NCBI GenBank assembly: GCA_965238075.1
Contig: OZ250173.1
Span: 1,216,001 to 1,280,000 of the forward strand
From: Candidatus Entotheonellaceae bacterium
GTDB lineage: Bacteria > Tectomicrobia > Entotheonellia > Entotheonellales > Entotheonellaceae
Length of the DNA: 64,000 nt
Reading direction: 5' to 3'
Translations under genes and position numbers: made by a program
Part shown: piece after piece, positions 342-7,590 of the stretch
How positions within the stretch are numbered: the stretch's first letter is position 1
Layout: the number at the start of each line of letters is the position of its first letter
The notes under the pieces: model-generated
What the model saw: the letters and a program-made list of their open reading frames with translations, nothing else
Databases searched by the model: none
What the model was told of the DNA's origin: nothing

Positions 342-3300
342 ATGCCGAAACGGGACATTGAGACCTACGCGCATGCCGATAAGGAGCGCGTCAACAACCC
401 GCCTGTCGGCTTGGTCACGCCGGAGACCGACCGCGACGCGGGTCGCAGGACCTACGCCCACGACCCGCACCTGGACCCGCAACTCTCCTGGGCCGGCAAG
501 GCGGAGCATACGTCGTTCGAGGTGCCGACCGTGTCGCTGCACGTGCACGAACGGATCGACCCGCGCACCATCGTCGAAGCGGTGCGCAAGCGCAACGGCG
601 TGCAACCGCAGATGTCCTTGTTCGCCGCGCCGAAGGACAACCCGCCGCTGCGCCCGGCTATCGAGTTCTACCGGCACCGCCACAACTGGAGCAACCGCCT
701 GATTGCGGGCGACAGCCTGCTAGTCATGAACGGCCTGATCGAGAAGGAGGGTCTCGGCGGGCAGGTGCAGACGGTCTACCTCGACCCGCCCTACGGCATC
801 CGTTACGGCTCCAACTTCCAGCCCTTCGTAAACCGGCGCGAGGTCACCGACGGCAAGGACGAGGACCTGACCGGCGAGCCGGAGCAGATTCGCGCCTTCC
901 GGGACACCTGGGAACTCGGCATTCACTCCTACCTCGCGTACCTCCGGGACCGCTTGCTGCTGGCACGCGAGTTGCTGCACGCGAGCGGAAGCTGTTTCGT
1001 GCAGATAGGCGATGAGAACGTCCATTGCGTTGGCATGGCCATGGACGAGATCTTCGGGGCCGAGAACAGGGTGGCTACCATCTCCTACGCGACCACGGGC
1101 GGCAGTTCAGCCAACACGCTCCCGCAGGTGGCCGACTATCTGCTGTGGTATGCCAGGGATCGGAGGCGCGTGAAGTATCGGCAATTGTATGAACCTCTGA
1201 CGCGAGCCGAAGTGATCCAATTTTTCAGTTCATATGTCATGGTTGAGCTGCCCGGCGGAGAGTGCCGCAAACCGACCCTGGAAGAGTGTTTCGACCCAAA
1301 TAGTTATCTGCCGGAAGGGACGCGCATCTATCGCCGCATGCCTTTGTTATCGCGGGGCGGCTCCACGACCGGCCGCTCAGAGCCCTATGAGTGGAACAGT
1401 CAAGTCTTTCATTGCCCAACGGGTCAGCAGTGGCGGGTATCAAATCCGGAAGGGCTGGACCGGCTGGCTGAGTTAGGCCGACTGGATGCTGCTGGAGCCC
1501 AAAGTTCCTTAAGTTGGAAACGATACGAAGACGAGGTTCCCGGTCGGCGCATCAACAATATCTGGGCGCCGCCGATGTCGCCTAAAGACAAGCACTATGT
1601 AGTCGAAACCGCAACCAGCGTCATCCAGCGCTGCATCCTGATGACTACTGACCCCGGCGACCTAGTATTCGATCCTACCTGCGGCTCCGGCACCACCGCC
1701 TATGTCGCCGAACAATGGGGCCGGCGCTGGATGACCTGCGACACCTCGCGGGTAGCTATCGCTATTGCCCGGCAGCGGCTGATGACCTCAAATTACGACT
1801 ACTACGAGCTGGCCCATCCCGACGAGGGTGTCGGCGCCGGGTTCCGCTACCGCAGCGTTGCCACCGTCTCGGCGCGGATCCTGGGCTACGACGAGCCGCC
1901 CAATAGAACCCTGCTCTACGACCAGCCCCATAGCGACCGCAAGAAGGCCCGTGTCACCGGTCCGTTCACCGTGGAGGCGGTGCCGGCTCCCGTCGTCACG
2001 ACGGTAGACGAGATCATGGATGCTCCTCCTGCCCCTGACGTAAGCACCGCCGACCTGTCCATCGCCCGCTCCGGCGAAACCCTGCGGCAAAGCGACTGGC
2101 GCGACGAATTGCTCAAGACCGGCATTCGCGGCAAAGCAGGGCAGCGCATCTCGTTCGCGCGGCTGGAACCATTGCCGGGAACCCGCTGGCTGCACGCCGA
2201 GGGCGAGACGCACCCGGACGCCGCCGGCGCCGACCACGTGCATGAATCCGCCACCGCCTACGCGCCCACGCCTCTTGTGGTCTCGTTCGGGCCGCACCAC
2301 GCACCGCTGGAGCAGCGGCAGGTCGCCCGTGCCATCGAGGAGGCGCAAAGCCTCGTCCCGAAGCCGAAGATCATCATCTTCGCGGCGTTTCAGTTCGACC
2401 CCGAGGCGGCCAAGGACATCGACGAGACCCACTGGCCGGGCGTCACGCTGCTCAAGGCGCAGATGAACGCCGACTTGCTGACCGAGGACCTGAAGAAGAA
2501 GCGGGCAAGCAACGAGAGCTTCTGGCTGATCGGCCAGCCGGAGGTGGAAGTTTCGAGTTTTCAGTTTTTTGTTTTTGGTGAGGGGCAGCGGAGGATTGGC
2601 GAATATGGAGCGTTCAAGAAGCTATCGGGACTTGATCGTCTGGAAGAGATCAATCGGCTTGATTGGCAAGCTCTATTCCTATACGCGCTCCTTTCCCAGG
2701 GAAGAGACGTATGGCATTACCTCGCAGATACGCAGGGCTGGGATTTCGATAGCGGCCAATATCGCGGAAGGCCAGGCCAGAAACACGAGCGGGGAGTTCC
2801 GGCAGTTTCTTGGAATAGCCCAAGGCTCGTTGGCGGAATTGGAAACGCTACTGACGATCTCGCAGAATTTGGGATATATGACCTCGCCGGAGGCCGAAGG
2901 GTTATTCAGCGACTGCGAGGCGATCGGCAGGTTGTTGGCAGGCTTGCAGAAGTCGCTGAAGCCCTGAATTTTCCCATCCAACCCCGCACTCAAAACTATC
3001 AACTCAAAACTCAAAACTTGCACAGCCTCGCCGTGCACGGCTTCGACTACTACAACACCAAGACCGGCAACGTCGAATCCGGCGGCTCGGAACGTATCGC
3101 CCTGTGGATGCTCGACCCGGACTATGACGGGCGCAGCCTGTTTCCGCGCCAGGTGTTCTTCCCCACGGCCGGCGGCAATGGAGGCTGGGCGAGATTGGCC
3201 CGCCATCTCAAGGCCGAGATCGACGAGAGCCGGATGGAAGCCTATCGGGGCACCGTCTCGCTGCCGTTTGAGGCGGGGGAGCATCGACGGGCGGCGGTGA

Positions 3301-3353
3301 AGATTGTGGACGACCGCGGGATCGAGAGTTTGAAAATCGTGGAGTTGGGGTAA
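342..3353 (+). CDS. mod: Type III-like restriction-modification adenine methyltransferase (Mod), beta-class, with ~155-aa in-frame insertion near C-terminus
   Basis: AAGGAG RBS before ATG 342; motif IV 'YLDPPYGI' precedes motif I 'VFDPTCGSGTT'; C-terminal 'GFDYYNTKTG...WMLDPDYDGRS...AAVKIVDDRGIESLKI'; upstream of Res. Confidence 0.93.
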   Translation: MPKRDIETYAHADKERVNNPPVGLVTPETDRDAGRRTYAHDPHLDPQLSWAGKAEHTSFEVPTVSLHVHERIDPRTIVEAVRKRNGVQPQMSLFAAPKDNPPLRPAIEFYRHRHNWSNRLIAGDSLLVMNGLIEKEGLGGQVQTVYLDPPYGIRYGSNFQPFVNRREVTDGKDEDLTGEPEQIRAFRDTWELGIHSYLAYLRDRLLLARELLHASGSCFVQIGDENVHCVGMAMDEIFGAENRVATISYATTGGSSANTLPQVADYLLWYARDRRRVKYRQLYEPLTRAEVIQFFSSYVMVELPGGECRKPTLEECFDPNSYLPEGTRIYRRMPLLSRGGSTTGRSEPYEWNSQVFHCPTGQQWRVSNPEGLDRLAELGRLDAAGAQSSLSWKRYEDEVPGRRINNIWAPPMSPKDKHYVVETATSVIQRCILMTTDPGDLVFDPTCGSGTTAYVAEQWGRRWMTCDTSRVAIAIARQRLMTSNYDYYELAHPDEGVGAGFRYRSVATVSARILGYDEPPNRTLLYDQPHSDRKKARVTGPFTVEAVPAPVVTTVDEIMDAPPAPDVSTADLSIARSGETLRQSDWRDELLKTGIRGKAGQRISFARLEPLPGTRWLHAEGETHPDAAGADHVHESATAYAPTPLVVSFGPHHAPLEQRQVARAIEEAQSLVPKPKIIIFAAFQFDPEAAKDIDETHWPGVTLLKAQMNADLLTEDLKKKRASNESFWLIGQPEVEVSSFQFFVFGEGQRRIGEYGAFKKLSGLDRLEEINRLDWQALFLYALLSQGRDVWHYLADTQGWDFDSGQYRGRPGQKHERGVPAVSWNSPRLVGGIGNATDDLAEFGIYDLAGGRRVIQRLRGDRQVVGRLAEVAEALNFPIQPRTQNYQLKTQNLHSLAVHGFDYYNTKTGNVESGGSERIALWMLDPDYDGRSLFPRQVFFPTAGGNGGWARLARHLKAEIDESRMEAYRGTVSLPFEAGEHRRAAVKIVDDRGIESLKIVELG
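2548..3019. mobile_element. Intervening element inside mod: inverted heptamer-repeat arms enclosing a four-helix-bundle gene
   Basis: Left arm a-agtttcg-agttttc-agttttt-tgttttt-ggtg (2548-2580); right arm cact-caaaact-atcaact-caaaact-caaaact-t (2987-3019) is its imperfect reverse complement; interior is less GC-rich than flanking mod; separates 'WLIGQPEVE' from 'VHGFDYYN'. Confidence 0.8.
2605..2967 (+). CDS. Four helix bundle protein (23S rRNA intervening-sequence protein family, structurally related to DGR Avd), nested in mod in the +1 frame
   Basis: GGAGG at 2590-2594, ATG 2605; 120 aa with family motifs 'SYRDLIVW', 'FPREETYGITSQIRRAGISIAANIAEGQAR', 'FRQFLGIAQGSLAELET'. Confidence 0.92.
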   Translation: MERSRSYRDLIVWKRSIGLIGKLYSYTRSFPREETYGITSQIRRAGISIAANIAEGQARNTSGEFRQFLGIAQGSLAELETLLTISQNLGYMTSPEAEGLFSDCEAIGRLLAGLQKSLKP

Positions 3354-4135
3354 TGGCGCAAACGAAAAAAGGCAAGGCGCTTGAACGGTTGCGGAAAGCG
3401 CTGGATGAAATGCCTGAACTGAAACAATTTCGGCTGGACTCGCCATCATTCAAAAAATGGCGAAGAGATACAGAGGTGGCCATCACCAACACGTTTGATA
3501 GCGAATCAAGCCACATCAACGATTTCCAAAAAGAGATCCTTTCATATGTTAATGACGCATCCGATGCAGAGGTTCGGGAATCAGTGAAGGCGATACTCGA
3601 ATCCATGGTTGATGAGATCAACAAGTACTGGGGAGATGAAAGCGAGGCGTCGCGGTCTTCCGATAGTCACAGGGATGGACAGATAAACACGAAAGAAGTC
3701 TTCATTGTTCACGGCAGGAACAAAGGTGCCCGTGAAAAGGTAGCGAGGTTTCTGGAAAGGTTGGAACTCAAACCCGTGGTGCTGCACGAACAGCCGAATG
3801 AAGGCCGCACAATTATCGAAAAGTTTGAGGATTTTGCGCATGTCGGGTTCGCCGTGGTTCTGCTGACGCCGGACGACATAGGCAGGCTGCAAGACGATGC
3901 GGGCGACTTCAGACCTCGCGCAAGGCAAAACGTCATTTTCGAGTTCGGGTACTTTATCGGAAAACTCGGTCGGGAGCGTGTCTGCGCTTTGGTGAAAGGG
4001 AACGTGGAAAGGCCGTCGGACTACGATGGCGTTGTTTACGTTCCATTGGACGACCTGGGTGGGTGGGAAATGAAGCTTGTCCGGGAGTTGACAAGCGTTG
4101 GATACAAGATCGACCTGAACCGGTTAGTGACATGA
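3353..4135 (+). CDS. TIR-like domain nucleotide-binding protein (CAP12/Pycsar-type TIR) with N-terminal helical domain
   Basis: 'VFIVHGRN...VLHEQPNEGRTIIEKFE...FAVVLLTPDD...RARQNVIFEFGYFIGKLGRERV'; TAATG overlap with mod stop. Confidence 0.88.
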   Translation: MAQTKKGKALERLRKALDEMPELKQFRLDSPSFKKWRRDTEVAITNTFDSESSHINDFQKEILSYVNDASDAEVRESVKAILESMVDEINKYWGDESEASRSSDSHRDGQINTKEVFIVHGRNKGAREKVARFLERLELKPVVLHEQPNEGRTIIEKFEDFAHVGFAVVLLTPDDIGRLQDDAGDFRPRARQNVIFEFGYFIGKLGRERVCALVKGNVERPSDYDGVVYVPLDDLGGWEMKLVRELTSVGYKIDLNRLVT

Positions 4136-4443
4136 ACGCACGTATCGACATACCGTCTGACAAAATCGCTGCCTTCTGTCAGCGTTGGCAGATCACGCGC
4201 CTTGCGCTGTTCGGATCGATATTGCGCGACGACTTCGGGTCCGATAGCGATATTGATGTTCTCGTTAAATTCAATGAAACGGCGCACCCCACGCTGTTCG
4301 ACATGAGCCGAATGGAAGCAGAGTTGAAGGCGATTCTGGGGCGCGAGGTCGATCTCGTCAGCCAGCGCGGTGTAGAGAGGAGCCGCAATTTCCTGCGCCG
4401 AAAAGCGATATTGGAATCCGCGGAACTCGTCTATGGATCGTGA
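4132..4443 (+). CDS. Minimal nucleotidyltransferase antitoxin (MntA-like)
   Basis: 'LALFGSILRDDFGSDSDIDVLV' GS..D.D motif; ATGA overlap with TIR gene. Confidence 0.9.
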   Translation: MNARIDIPSDKIAAFCQRWQITRLALFGSILRDDFGSDSDIDVLVKFNETAHPTLFDMSRMEAELKAILGREVDLVSQRGVERSRNFLRRKAILESAELVYGS

Positions 4444-4774
4444 TACCGGATCTATTCTCGATATCCTCGAATCGGCCCGGACGATAATGGCCTATGTCAC
4501 AGGCGTTACGCGCCAGGAGTTTTTGCGGGCTACTCAAATTCAGGATTCCGTCATTCGTCGCCTTGAGATCATCGGCGAGGCAGCGGGACGCATCTCACCG
4601 GGATTTCGCGACACGCATCCGGAAATTCAGTGGTCCGAAATAAGGGGAATGCGAAACCGGATGACCCATGGATACGACGACATTGATATGGATATCGTGT
4701 GGGACACTGTTGAGCGCGATATCCCGCATCTCATTCAAATTATTGAATCACTTGCACCACCGAAGACCGAATAG
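4433..4774 (+). CDS. HEPN/DUF86 ribonuclease toxin (HepT-like)
   Basis: 'RRLEIIGEAA' and R-x4-H-x-Y motif 'RNRMTHGYDDID...VWDTV'; follows MNT gene. Confidence 0.9.
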   Translation: MDRDTGSILDILESARTIMAYVTGVTRQEFLRATQIQDSVIRRLEIIGEAAGRISPGFRDTHPEIQWSEIRGMRNRMTHGYDDIDMDIVWDTVERDIPHLIQIIESLAPPKTE

Positions 4775-7590
4775 TGGCCCAAACGACCATCGATCGCCTG
4801 ATCGTCAACTCGCCCTACGAAGAGCCGGCGAAGCACTGGCAGTACGACCGGGTCACGCGCTCGTTCGGCCTTGCGGAGGGCCGGCGACCGGCGGGGTATG
4901 TTGTCGCTTCCCAAGACTCCAAGGCGTTTGACGACCCCGGTGTGTTTGTCGAAATTCCCTTGGTCAATCAGATCCGGCCGCGTGTCAAGGCATGGCGTGA
5001 AGCCGGGTATCCGGGCGTCACCGGCATGACCAAGCGGCTGCTGGCGCACTGGACCGACCCGGAGGAGTTTGACAGCCGGCGGTTCTTCTTCTGCCAGCTC
5101 GAGGCGGTGGAGACGCTCATCTGGCTCATTGAGGCGCCGGCGGCTGAAAAGGTGGGCGTGCAGATTCCTTCCGCTGGCGGCGCGTTCAGGCGACTGTGCG
5201 CGAAGATGGCCACCGGCTCAGGCAAAACCGTCGTCATGGCAATGGTGGCGGCGTGGCACATCCTGAACAAGGTGACATCGCCCCAGGACACCCGATTCGC
5301 CAGGCACATCCTGGTTGTCGCGCCGGGGCTCACGGTCAGGAACCGCCTGGCGGTGTTGGAGCCGTCCCACCCGGAGAACTATTACGACGCCTTCCGAATC
5401 GTGCCGTCAGCCTTGCTTGACAAGCTGCGGCAAGGCAAGGTCGTGATCCGCAACTGGCACGCGCTCAACTGGGAGGGTGGGGGCAAAATCGCCGCCAAGC
5501 GCGGCGTGGACAAGCGCGGCGCCAAAAGCGACGAAGCGTATGTGCGCGACGTGCTCGGAGACATGGCGCGGGCGCGGAACATCCTGGTCATTAACGACGA
5601 GGCGCATCACGCCTGGCGCGTTCCCGCCGAATCCAAGATGAAGGGCGTGGCGAAGGCCGACATCGACGAGGCTACCAAGTGGATTGGCGGCCTCGACCGC
5701 ATCCACAGGGCGCGGGGCATTCTGACCTGCTACGACTTCTCGGCCACCCCTTTCGCGCCGTCAGGCAAGCGGAGTTCCGAGGAGGCGTTGTTCGGCTGGA
5801 TCGTGAGCGACTTCGGCCTGAACGACGCCATCGAATCGGGTCTGGTCAAGACCCCGCGCGTGGTGATCCGGGACGACGCGGTGCCCGATGCCAAGACTTA
5901 CAGATCCCGCCTCTATCACATCTACAACGATGCGGAGGTCAAAGACGACCTGAACCGCCACGCCAAGACGGAAGAACCGCTGCCCGATCTGGTCCTGAAC
6001 GGTTATTACCTGCTCGGCTACGACTGGCGCGAGACGGCGAAGGACTGGAGCGACAAGGGATTCCAGACCCCGCCGGTCATGATTACCGTTGCCAACCGCA
6101 CGGAGACGGCAGCTCGCATCAAGTACGCGTTTGGCCACAAGAGGGTCCATATCGAGGAACTATGCGACCCGGCGCGCACCCTTCACATCGACTCGAAGGT
6201 GCTCGAAGCGGCTGAGGCTGCTGAAGAAGTTTTAAGTGGCAAGTTTTCAGTGGATGCCAGCAAGGACGGTCTAAAAACTGAAAACGTAAAACCGCCAACC
6301 AAGAAGCAGCAAGCCGAGCTGCTGCGCCGGCAGGTGGACAGCGTGGGCCGGCTTGGCAAGGAGGGCGAGCGGATACAGAACGTGATTTCCGTTGGCATGC
6401 TCTCCGAGGGATGGGACGCAAAGACCGTAACCCACATCATGGGATTGCGCGCGTTCACCAGCCAGCTTCTCTGCGAGCAGGTGGTCGGCCGCGGCCTGCG
6501 TCGCACCTCCTATGAAGTGGACCCGAGTAGCGGTCTGTTCAAGCCGGAATACGTCAACATTTTCGGCGTGCCCTTTACGTTTCTGCCCCACGAGGGGGGA
6601 ACGGACGGCCCACCGCCGCCGCCGGAACCAAAGACGGCTATCGAGCCGGTAGCGGACCAGGCGGGTTTCGAAATCTCCTGGCCGAACGTGATCCGCATCG
6701 ACCACGGCTTCCGTCCGCACCTGTCCCTGGATTGGCAGGCGCTGCAGCCCCTGGAACTCGACGCCAGCCAGACGGCCAGGCTCGCCGAGCTTGCTCCGAT
6801 CGTCGAAGGCAAGCCCGACGTGTCGAAGATCGAGGCGATCGACCTGGGAAAGCTGGCGACAGAGTTTCGTACGCAGCGCATCGTCTTTGAGACGGCGCGG
6901 GACGTGTACGATCTGATGCAGCCGAACTGGCCGGGCGGCAAGGCGTTGCTGCTGGCCCAGCTGGTGCGGTTGATCGAGCAATTCATTCGCTCGGATAGCA
7001 TCAGGATTACCCCGGCCCTGTTCCGGCATGACGATCTCAAGCGCCGCCTCATCATCACGCTCAACATGACCAAGGTTGTGCAGCATGTCTGGGAGGGCAT
7101 CCGCTTCGAGAATACCGAAAGACTGGAGCCGGTGTTCGACCGGGACCGGCCCATCCGTTCTACGGGTGACATGGCGACGTGGTACACGGGCAAGCCGTGC
7201 GAACGCGCGGCACGCAGTCACATCAACTTCTGCGTCTACGACGGCACCTGGGAGGCAACGGAGGCCTTCGCCCTCGATCATGCCGACGAGGTGGCTGCCT
7301 GGGTGAAGAACGATCACCTCGGTTTCGAGGCGTTCTACGTTCACCGAGGCGTGGTGCGGAAGTACCGCCCGGATTTCCTGATCCGGCTCTCCTCGGGCGA
7401 CATGCTGGTTCTGGAGGTCAAGGGGCAAGACAGCGATCGGGACCAGACCAAGCGCCGATTCCTCGACGAATGGGTACGCGCCGTCAATGCCCATGGTGGC
7501 TTCGGTCGCTGGGCCTGGGACGTGTCGAAATCTCCCAGCGACATTCGCGACATCCTCGCAAAGCGCGCCCATGCGGCGTCTACTGCTTGA
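4774..7590 (+). CDS. res: Type III-like restriction endonuclease/helicase subunit (Res)
   Basis: Walker A 'MATGSGKT', 'NDEAHH', 'SATP', 'MLSEGWDA', 'EQVVGRGLRR', C-terminal PD-(D/E)xK 'YRPDFLIRL...LEVKG'; GTG start overlapping HEPN stop. Confidence 0.93.
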   Translation: MAQTTIDRLIVNSPYEEPAKHWQYDRVTRSFGLAEGRRPAGYVVASQDSKAFDDPGVFVEIPLVNQIRPRVKAWREAGYPGVTGMTKRLLAHWTDPEEFDSRRFFFCQLEAVETLIWLIEAPAAEKVGVQIPSAGGAFRRLCAKMATGSGKTVVMAMVAAWHILNKVTSPQDTRFARHILVVAPGLTVRNRLAVLEPSHPENYYDAFRIVPSALLDKLRQGKVVIRNWHALNWEGGGKIAAKRGVDKRGAKSDEAYVRDVLGDMARARNILVINDEAHHAWRVPAESKMKGVAKADIDEATKWIGGLDRIHRARGILTCYDFSATPFAPSGKRSSEEALFGWIVSDFGLNDAIESGLVKTPRVVIRDDAVPDAKTYRSRLYHIYNDAEVKDDLNRHAKTEEPLPDLVLNGYYLLGYDWRETAKDWSDKGFQTPPVMITVANRTETAARIKYAFGHKRVHIEELCDPARTLHIDSKVLEAAEAAEEVLSGKFSVDASKDGLKTENVKPPTKKQQAELLRRQVDSVGRLGKEGERIQNVISVGMLSEGWDAKTVTHIMGLRAFTSQLLCEQVVGRGLRRTSYEVDPSSGLFKPEYVNIFGVPFTFLPHEGGTDGPPPPPEPKTAIEPVADQAGFEISWPNVIRIDHGFRPHLSLDWQALQPLELDASQTARLAELAPIVEGKPDVSKIEAIDLGKLATEFRTQRIVFETARDVYDLMQPNWPGGKALLLAQLVRLIEQFIRSDSIRITPALFRHDDLKRRLIITLNMTKVVQHVWEGIRFENTERLEPVFDRDRPIRSTGDMATWYTGKPCERAARSHINFCVYDGTWEATEAFALDHADEVAAWVKNDHLGFEAFYVHRGVVRKYRPDFLIRLSSGDMLVLEVKGQDSDRDQTKRRFLDEWVRAVNAHGGFGRWAWDVSKSPSDIRDILAKRAHAASTA
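6228..6300. repeat. Gene-less heptamer inverted-repeat hairpin in frame within res
   Basis: agtttta-agtggca-agttttc-agtggat ... aaaaact-gaaaacg-taaaacc-gccaacc; perfect core gttttcagt (6243-6251) / actgaaaac (6277-6285); AT-rich patch in GC-rich gene. Confidence 0.65.

Follow-up and report, generated by a model that had tools for sequence, protein, structure and literature searches.

An intervening-sequence-type cassette with inverted heptamer arms, probably read through in frame inside a Type III-like methyltransferase gene

How can a methyltransferase gene carry a second, complete gene inside its own uninterrupted reading frame? The question is raised by a 64,000-nt stretch of contig OZ250173.1 (the window) from a Candidatus Entotheonellaceae bacterium, where the open reading frame (ORF) of Mod, the methyltransferase subunit of a Type III-like restriction-modification (R-M) system, holds a cassette of about 470 nt. 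The cassette has the architecture of the intervening sequences (IVSs) of 23S rRNA: a promoterless S23p/PF05635 gene with its own ribosome-binding site, bracketed by inverted heptamer arrays. We consider it probable that this IVS-type cassette is read in frame within Mod by plain read-through, and that the nested gene is expressed from the same mRNA. It has taken the place of a beta-hairpin tip within the conserved C-terminal domain of Mod. We infer that ordinary translation runs straight on through the cassette to give Mod and that internal initiation in the +1 frame gives the four-helix protein, in which case splicing, excision and a ribosomal hop would all be unneeded. Gain or loss of units by slippage in the arms could put the Mod C-terminus out of frame.

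A four-helix gene within the Mod reading frame

The features of the cassette and its host gene are as follows, all on the forward strand of the window.

342..3353, + strand: Mod methyltransferase ORF, 1003 aa, from the ATG at 342 to the stop; PF01555, E 5.9e-25; stop-free in frame
2547..3020, + strand: cassette, 474 nt between the Mod anchors
2544..2585, + strand: left arm, a heptamer array (unit AGTTTNN, about four copies); Mod-frame translation VEVSSFQFFVFG
2590..2594, + strand: GGAGG, a Shine-Dalgarno-like motif 10 nt before the nested ATG
2605..2967, + strand: nested four-helix-bundle (S23p / 23S_rRNA_IVP) gene, 120 aa, in the +1 frame relative to Mod
2982..3023, + strand: right arm, a complementary heptamer array with the unit NCAAAACT

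The Mod ORF has no stop across the block, which lies between ...NESFWLIGQPEVE and LAVHGFDYYNTKTG..., and conserved Mod motifs border the cassette (ESFWLIGQP on one side, GFDYYNTKTG on the other). An initial annotation of this DNA had described a block of about 470 nt splitting Mod, with inverted heptamer arms of 33 nt and a complete 120-residue +1-frame gene preceded by GGAGG. We recovered each of these elements, with the arms extended to 42 nt each at 79% complementarity. A purine-rich motif equivalent to GGAGG is visible in other nested copies. The proposed check with four-helix-bundle profile hidden Markov models (HMMs) came out in favor of the assignment: the nested ORF scored 121.3 bits against PF05635 (cut-off 33.8) and 119.3 bits against TIGR02436 (cut-off 24), covering model positions 1-109 of 109, and 138.6 bits against NF008911 (cut-off 137), with E-values of about 1e-35. 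Both models of Avd, an accessory protein of diversity-generating retroelements (DGRs), stayed under their curated cut-offs (PF22296, 34.2 vs 40; NF033474, 21.4 vs 80).

We found no transposase, integrase or reverse transcriptase among the six proteins scanned in 342-7590, as the initial annotation had also reported. The Mod-frame protein has no intein domain, and PF01555 is its sole Pfam family. A promoter scan of 2300-3400 returned zero promoter-like sites, and a search of 2400-3150 against Rfam, with E up to 1, matched zero families, including the intron and 23S rRNA ones. The predicted RNA fold of the whole block is mildly unusual (z = -2.08; 3 of 100 shuffles were equally good), and in the minimum free energy fold of the block the arms are paired with each other.

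Probable read-through of the cassette

We compared Mod alleles in two ways: (i) a protein comparison, with Mod residues 520-1003 as query and the 120 best relatives retained; and (ii) a frame-blind survey, in which DNA was fetched with a Mod alignment, giving 79 loci of different species, 77 of them with both anchors. In the first, the read-through translation of the block was alignable in 82 of the 120 relatives at 30-98% identity and not in the remaining 38, in a list biased toward filled alleles because the query held the insert and gene callers report open frames alone. The initial annotation had taken a routinely alignable segment of about 155 residues in Mod homologs as grounds to abandon the inserted element. 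Such a segment is literally there in those 82 relatives, but it is the same cassette read in the Mod frame and not an ordinary domain, as the four-helix gene lies in +1 in every DNA locus checked.

The frame-blind survey supplied the empty alleles that the initial annotation had suggested looking for. In the other species, 69 of the 77 Mod loci are free of the cassette and mostly carry a tip of 39 nt or 27 nt in its place; in the 39-nt form (13 codons) the hairpin tip has a sequence such as ...IEIK-RVTEGEDEGK-YHISV.... The other 8 loci, in genomes of other phyla, hold a PF05635-like gene in the +1 frame. The insert length is a multiple of three, with zero stops inside the insert, in all eight of these filled loci and in all six Mod loci from metagenomes; in one of the eight, L017, a TAG stands just past the right junction and the nested gene is broken.

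At six other Mod loci, unrelated in-frame insertions of 75-150 nt occupy the same tip, some of them visibly palindromic. The hairpin tip is a permissive site for insertion, because these unrelated insertions occupy it too. Targeting of a nucleic-acid hairpin by the cassette was rejected: 12 empty sites folded as DNA gave z from -1.98 to +0.86, with no hairpin evident. The tip insertions in L011, L031 and L071 are palindromic or tandem-palindromic and resemble read-through repeats of the repetitive extragenic palindromic (REP) or miniature inverted-repeat transposable element (MITE) type. Some filled Mod relatives (P0005, P0007, P0008, P0019 and others) are longer, at about 1200 aa, through an endonuclease-like DUF559/MTES_1575 extension at the N-terminus (PF04480, PF18741).

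An assembly error, a chimera or a chance +1 ORF is a negligible explanation for these observations. The same structure recurs in three congener genomes, 8 genomes of other phyla and 6 metagenome contigs, which disposes of the misassembly considered in the initial annotation; contigs of four runs from two studies bridge both junctions (see below), and the HMM E-value is about 1e-35.

To ask whether the open frame is selected, we counted stops in the Mod-equivalent (+2) frame inside the nested coding sequence for 24 nested copies (15 hosted by the Mod family of the window, 5 by a second Mod family and the remaining 4 by other genes), leaving out L097 and L140, whose nested frame is interrupted, and L017, L082 and L090. 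None of the 24 had a stop, against a mean of 4.7 stops in 64 free-standing copies of similar GC content, 4 of which had none. In the +1 frame the counts were 7-8 stops for the three nested classes and 6.5 for the free-standing class. When synonymous codons of the nested gene in the window were permuted, the Mod frame was stop-free in 3.4% of 2000 trials; across nested copies the probability of no stop had a median of 0.036, with 0.034 for the window and a maximum of 0.25. The nested copies have diverged to about 50% protein identity with zero stops gained in the host frame. Descriptively, nested arms of the AGTGGNT type have GAA-CAG or GAA-GAG in the unit that would put a TAG in the host frame, and free-standing arms retain the TAG in every unit. 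Across the copies compared, the Mod frame is evidently held open by selection.

Of the three mechanisms offered by the initial annotation, tolerated read-through is favored by the open frame and by unexcised contigs in RNA libraries, and excision and ribosomal bypass are disfavored, because selection on an open frame would be pointless were the block excised or bypassed. Contigs from three metatranscriptome runs of a closely related strain bridge both cassette junctions: the X7 contig spans 1908-3068, and those of X6 and X9 span 2460-3068 with 8 differences. Counting all runs, both junctions are bridged by contigs of four runs from two studies. These contigs weakly support transcription through the block and are no test of cleavage. 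They list no indels at the arms, in assemblies that drop rare variants.

The arms can pair, and it is conceivable that they do so in the mRNA and that the cassette is excised (by RNase III, with rejoining) or bypassed, yielding Mod without the insert. We regard this as very improbable. A stop-free Mod frame and a length that is a multiple of three would then have no cause, yet both hold; no intron family was matched in Rfam; and bacteria are not known to rejoin the pieces of an mRNA that RNase III has cut. Joints omitting about 490 nt were considered as splicing and rejected: the letters between their two sides are unknown, the sides are short (about 30 nt), and one such joint is also present in run X1, whose kind is not on record. 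Loose ends near these joints match the hairpin tip of empty alleles of other organisms, and we read the joints as empty alleles of other community members.

Cleavage without rejoining is another matter. RNase III could cut the stem in some transcripts, freeing a stable four-helix mRNA and destroying that Mod message; the cassette would then tune Mod dosage, and uncut transcripts would still give Mod by read-through. The stem resembles the one cut in Coxiella, and a family that occupies transcribed operon spacers, with no promoter-like site in the window copy, fits a life off host transcripts. The data contain no cleavage signal, however, in contigs that cannot show RNA ends, and the fold of the whole block is marginally better than shuffles (z = -2.08). 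We hold this account to be unlikely.

Read-through of an open frame leaves the question of which of the two frames is constrained as protein. Differences among nested copies are distributed over codon positions 1/2/3 of the nested gene as.27/.24/.49 (.29/.19/.52 in free-standing copies), and nested-protein identity exceeds Mod-frame identity in 104 of 105 pairs (means 0.61 vs 0.40). The nested gene is evidently under purifying selection in its own frame, more strongly than the Mod frame, and is a live gene and not a relic because of this codon-position bias and the higher nested-frame identity in 104 of 105 pairs.

The Mod-frame translation may nonetheless be more than filler. The comparisons hint at constraint on the Mod frame beyond the avoidance of stops: at equal nested identity, Mod-frame identity is higher in nested than in free-standing copies (.379 vs.251 in the 0.6-0.7 bin;.585 vs.324 in the 0.7-0.8 bin), and differences shift to the third codon position of the Mod frame (.239 vs.189). 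In the AlphaFold2 model, strands 733-745 and 888-905 form one long hairpin, so that the arms extend the beta-hairpin, and the interior of the cassette is modeled as helices. The predicted local distance difference test (pLDDT) score lies at 73-84 over residues 731-790 and at 63-85 over residues 841-900, which exceeds that of much of Mod; mean pLDDT is 61.5 for the whole model and 67.6 for a model of the region only, with a predicted template modeling (pTM) score of 0.62. On these grounds the read-through segment could be a functional, folded Mod domain, with about 120 codons encoding two selected proteins. Mod-frame identity is far under that of the nested frame (0.40 vs 0.61), however, and part of the signal could equally arise if constraint on the nested gene were relaxed; pLDDT drops below 50 at residues 801-820; a Foldseek search of the segment model against the PDB matched no solved fold (best E 0.67); and 69 of 77 Mod alleles manage without the insert. 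We regard a functional domain as possible, with the balance of doubt against it.

Arms, hosts and history of the cassette family

To place the window copy in a family, metagenome contigs were scanned with an alignment of nested four-helix proteins, which gave 80 loci, and these were pooled with the genome loci. A period-7 array was present on at least one side in 73 of the 84 copies with full flanks, and on both sides in 38; of 180 random windows drawn from these loci as a control, 4 had such an array. The arm heptamer varies by element (AGTTTTN, AGTGGNT, AGTTCTC, AGTACCC, AGTAGCT and others), and the upstream and downstream consensus units are mutually reverse-complementary (rotation distance of at most 1) in 28 of the 38 elements, vs 10.5% of non-cognate pairs. 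Inverted heptamer arrays are a defining feature of the cassette family and co-vary within each element, because of this prevalence (73/84) and this cognate match (28/38). The consensus comparison replaced a duplex-energy test (cognate mean -48.3 and non-cognate -39.9 kcal/mol; 24 of 85 cognate pairs below the 5th percentile), which was too blunt because the heptamers are alike in many elements.

Most members of the family lie outside ORFs. We scanned 104 flanking ORFs with Pfam and found free-standing copies in ordinary operon spacers: trpE-trpG (7 loci), YegS-type kinase/S49 peptidase (4), YchF/ZIP (4), and further spacers at cheA-cheB, flhA, ATP synthase and others. Free-standing copies are not tied to defense genes. 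The suggestion that the block belongs to a class of non-disruptive mobile elements inside defense genes is therefore apt for its non-disruptive place in this defense gene and too narrow for the family, as most relatives sit in the spacers of housekeeping operons.

Four-helix-bundle genes flanked by inverted heptamer arrays are also held by cyanobacterial plasmids. On Nostoc edaphicum plasmid pNe_5 (L174, 1400-1890), such a gene lies between the two ribonucleotide reductase genes, on the opposite strand; its upstream array has about eight units of GTAGGGA/GTGGGGA and its downstream array five of TCCCTAC. STRR are tandem heptanucleotide repeats of heterocystous cyanobacteria. STRR may be linked to these cassettes; the papers that our literature search gave mention STRR in passing alone.

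Nesting itself recurs. In 16 of the 80 metagenome loci a second open frame runs across the nested gene and far beyond it (at least 262 aa, or to the contig end), and in all 16 it is +2 relative to the nested gene, the same relation as in the window. The hosts are the same Mod family (6 metagenome loci), a second, distantly related N6_N4 methylase family whose C-terminal hairpin is homologous (5 metagenome loci), Eco57I/MmeI-type methylases (3 loci, plus 1 further relative broken at the right arm) and a Toprim protein (1 locus). A congener of the window organism has a second cassette with AGTGGNC-type arms (L081; G011:C1, ~3523865), which sits in the corresponding hairpin of another N6_N4 methylase, a distant relative that belongs to the second Mod family.

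A search for further host types, in which the read-through peptide was used to find longer proteins, was set aside: its 44 proteins all look like the same Mod family. Each methylase-domain protein among them has PF01555, and some short ones are Pfam-less or have PF04480/PF18741 alone. Short Mod forms start at assorted upstream points and not at the arm, and are uninformative on slippage.

The own-genome protein search for the nested gene found the window copy alone. An HMM search added a distant free-standing PF05635 gene of 77.7 bits (L091; G000:C1:882924-883217), placed between Type I hsdR (EcoEI_R_C) and hsdS (Methylase_S), where heptamer arms are not obvious. A metagenome locus, L095, has a four-helix gene of the window's clade standing free beside a PAS/GAF histidine kinase gene, without heptamer arrays; its +2 frame is stop-free, and this copy may have moved out of a Mod gene.

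The arms bear on a further account of the locus. Frame-blind searches gave 18 Mod-hosted copies, of which 15 are intact. In four genomes of the window's genus the anchor-to-anchor distance is 474, 474, 467 and 488 nt; the differences of -7 (G008) and +14 nt (G011) are whole heptamer units of the right arm, -1 and +2, and they move the C-terminal anchor to another frame. The heptamer arms make mod liable to frameshifts, as seen between species, and slippage would be the mechanism. By gaining and losing units the arms could switch Mod between off and on states, the way simple repeats act in phase-variable Type III mod genes, and the IVS heptamer copy number also varies among Coxiella strains (PMC4990558). 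The differences lie between species representatives, however, and not within a population; the runs contain no arm indel, in contigs from which rare variants are lost; the insert length is divisible by three in all 14 of the Mod-hosted copies from outside the window's genus; and the frameshifted copies may be decaying genes. We think such a switch rather improbable, more so than the dosage control considered above.

Two further observations concern slippage and decay. The Mod fragment P0128 begins inside a left arm that is apparently duplicated, with two successive VFSxxFLVF segments, which suggests that the growth of an arm is not limited to single units. In the congener G009 (L085), the nested stop is changed from TGA to TGG and the nested frame runs on for 256 codons, with Mod intact.

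We examined the history of the cassette with two trees, one of the nested protein (88 rows, quick IQ-TREE) and one of the Mod flanks without the insert (75 rows, quick tree). To stay in the latter, a row needed at least 250 aligned residues on the left and at least 95 on the right, a filter that removed, among others, 3 of 6 A-type hosts and 2 of 10 B-type hosts. On the first, nested copies group by host: the Mod-hosted label takes 5 changes vs 14.1 when shuffled (0 of 500 as low). On the second, filled alleles are scattered among empty ones, with 9 changes, at least 5 of them forced by well-supported branches, a scatter no better than that of shuffled labels (54 of 500 as low); filled/empty sister pairs have supports of 99-100. 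These comparisons show the same cassette lineages at the exact Mod site in alleles of many phyla.

The simplest reading of this patchiness is the exchange of filled and empty alleles by recombination through the nearly invariant flanking codons, because deletion cannot regenerate the conserved 13-residue tip; repeated site-specific insertion may be an alternative. At the window cassette we saw no target duplication, no transposase and no second own-genome copy of the same type. As to the mobility proposed by the initial annotation, we saw a patchy distribution at one site and no sign of transposition.

Several points weigh against plain read-through with expression of both genes. The 1003-aa Mod and the nested protein are predicted products. 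The permutation probability of a stop-free frame reaches 0.15-0.25 for GC-rich copies, and the nested copies share ancestry, so that 24 of 24 are not 24 independent events. Read-through is not preserved in every Mod-hosted copy, because 3 of the 18 are disrupted (L017, by the TAG; G008, by -7 nt; G011, by +14 nt). The RNA runs are assembled contigs, blind to ends, strand and cleavage, and may contain DNA. The long mRNA stem is a plausible RNase III substrate, and cleavage may occur alongside read-through. Both trees are quick ones with many unresolved forks. Read-through remains the account that we judge probable.

The genes that follow Mod in the window are listed below.

3353-4135: CAP12/Pycsar-type TIR-domain gene, PF10137, E 2e-40
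4132-4774: nucleotidyltransferase/HepT (MNT/HepT) toxin-antitoxin-like pair
4774-7590: Res subunit, ResIII-type restriction, PF04851, downstream of Mod

Mod has the N6/N4 methylase domain and shares its operon with a gene for the Res helicase-nuclease, as expected of a Mod subunit. The locus is a Type III-like R-M operon with three passenger genes between Mod and Res.

Significance and relation to known systems

To our knowledge, IVS elements have since about 1990 been known only as curiosities of rRNA genes, of unknown origin and function. The present comparison extends their architecture well beyond rRNA, with inverted heptamer arms as the shared, co-varying hallmark, and places one lineage in protein-coding genes, where some 120 codons would be stably read in two frames in more than ten phyla. 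The locus is a naturally occurring example on which long-term overlapping coding in bacteria can be tested, and it offers a possible new route to on/off switching of R-M. It also marks a blind spot in annotation, as gene callers retain either the long Mod or the nested gene and discard the other; the arrangement may have been overlooked because they report one of the two frames. Our literature search, with subscription-only papers and REBASE notes outside it, found no four-helix-bundle or IVS gene described as nested in a methyltransferase ORF, and it found no general account of heptamer arms beyond Coxiella.

More speculatively, and with considerable doubt, S23p-type cassettes could be a widespread promoterless class living in host transcripts (rRNA, operon spacers and ORFs). 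One lineage would have become dual-coding in methyltransferases, its arms serving as a beta-ribbon and a slippage switch and its shifted frame as a selected helical excursion, and it would spread between Mod alleles by recombination at the invariant flanking codons, a homing without a nuclease.

The nested protein belongs to a fold family that includes Avd, the DGR accessory protein, as a homologous four-helix bundle (PMC10053308). Its matches to the Avd models PF22296 and NF033474 are weak and under the cut-offs, and there is no reverse transcriptase among the six proteins in 342-7590.

The closest relatives in architecture are the S23p IVSs. In the Coxiella 23S rRNA IVS, as described in PMC4990558, a 28-bp terminal stem encloses an S23p ORF, tandem GACAGAT repeats of strain-variable number lie upstream of this ORF, and RNase III cleaves at the first repeat. 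The initial annotation's description of the block as IVS-like holds against that account, given the S23p/PF05635 ORF, the terminal stem and the heptamers. Like the S23p IVSs of Coxiella, Leptospira and others, the cassette has a PF05635 ORF in the loop of a long stem, arm heptamers in variable number and no transposase, and it lies inside a host transcript, where it replaces the tip of a hairpin. Unlike them, its host is protein-coding (the Mod ORF, with no Rfam match) and not helix 25 or 45 of 23S rRNA. The replaced hairpin is a beta-hairpin of the protein, and the empty sites are without a nucleic-acid hairpin fold. The host reading frame runs through and is kept open, and excision is unneeded.

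Phase-variable Type III mod genes have a simple repeat tract near the 5' end. As in these phasevarion genes, a tandem repeat lies in mod, its unit is not divisible by three, and changes in its number shift the frame (here between congeners). In contrast to their simple 5'-end tract, the repeats here are the arms of an inserted cassette.

Rickettsia palindromic elements (RPEs), with the rRNA IVSs the nearest precedents, are palindromic, lie in frame in ORFs and are translated with their host at fold-compatible positions (PMC10969869). Like RPEs and in-frame intragenic MITEs, the cassette is an inverted-repeat element inserted in frame and stop-free. RPEs are about 150 bp, gene-less and multi-copy per genome, whereas the cassette carries a conserved 120-aa gene in another frame, is the sole copy of its type in the genome and recurs at one homologous site across phyla.

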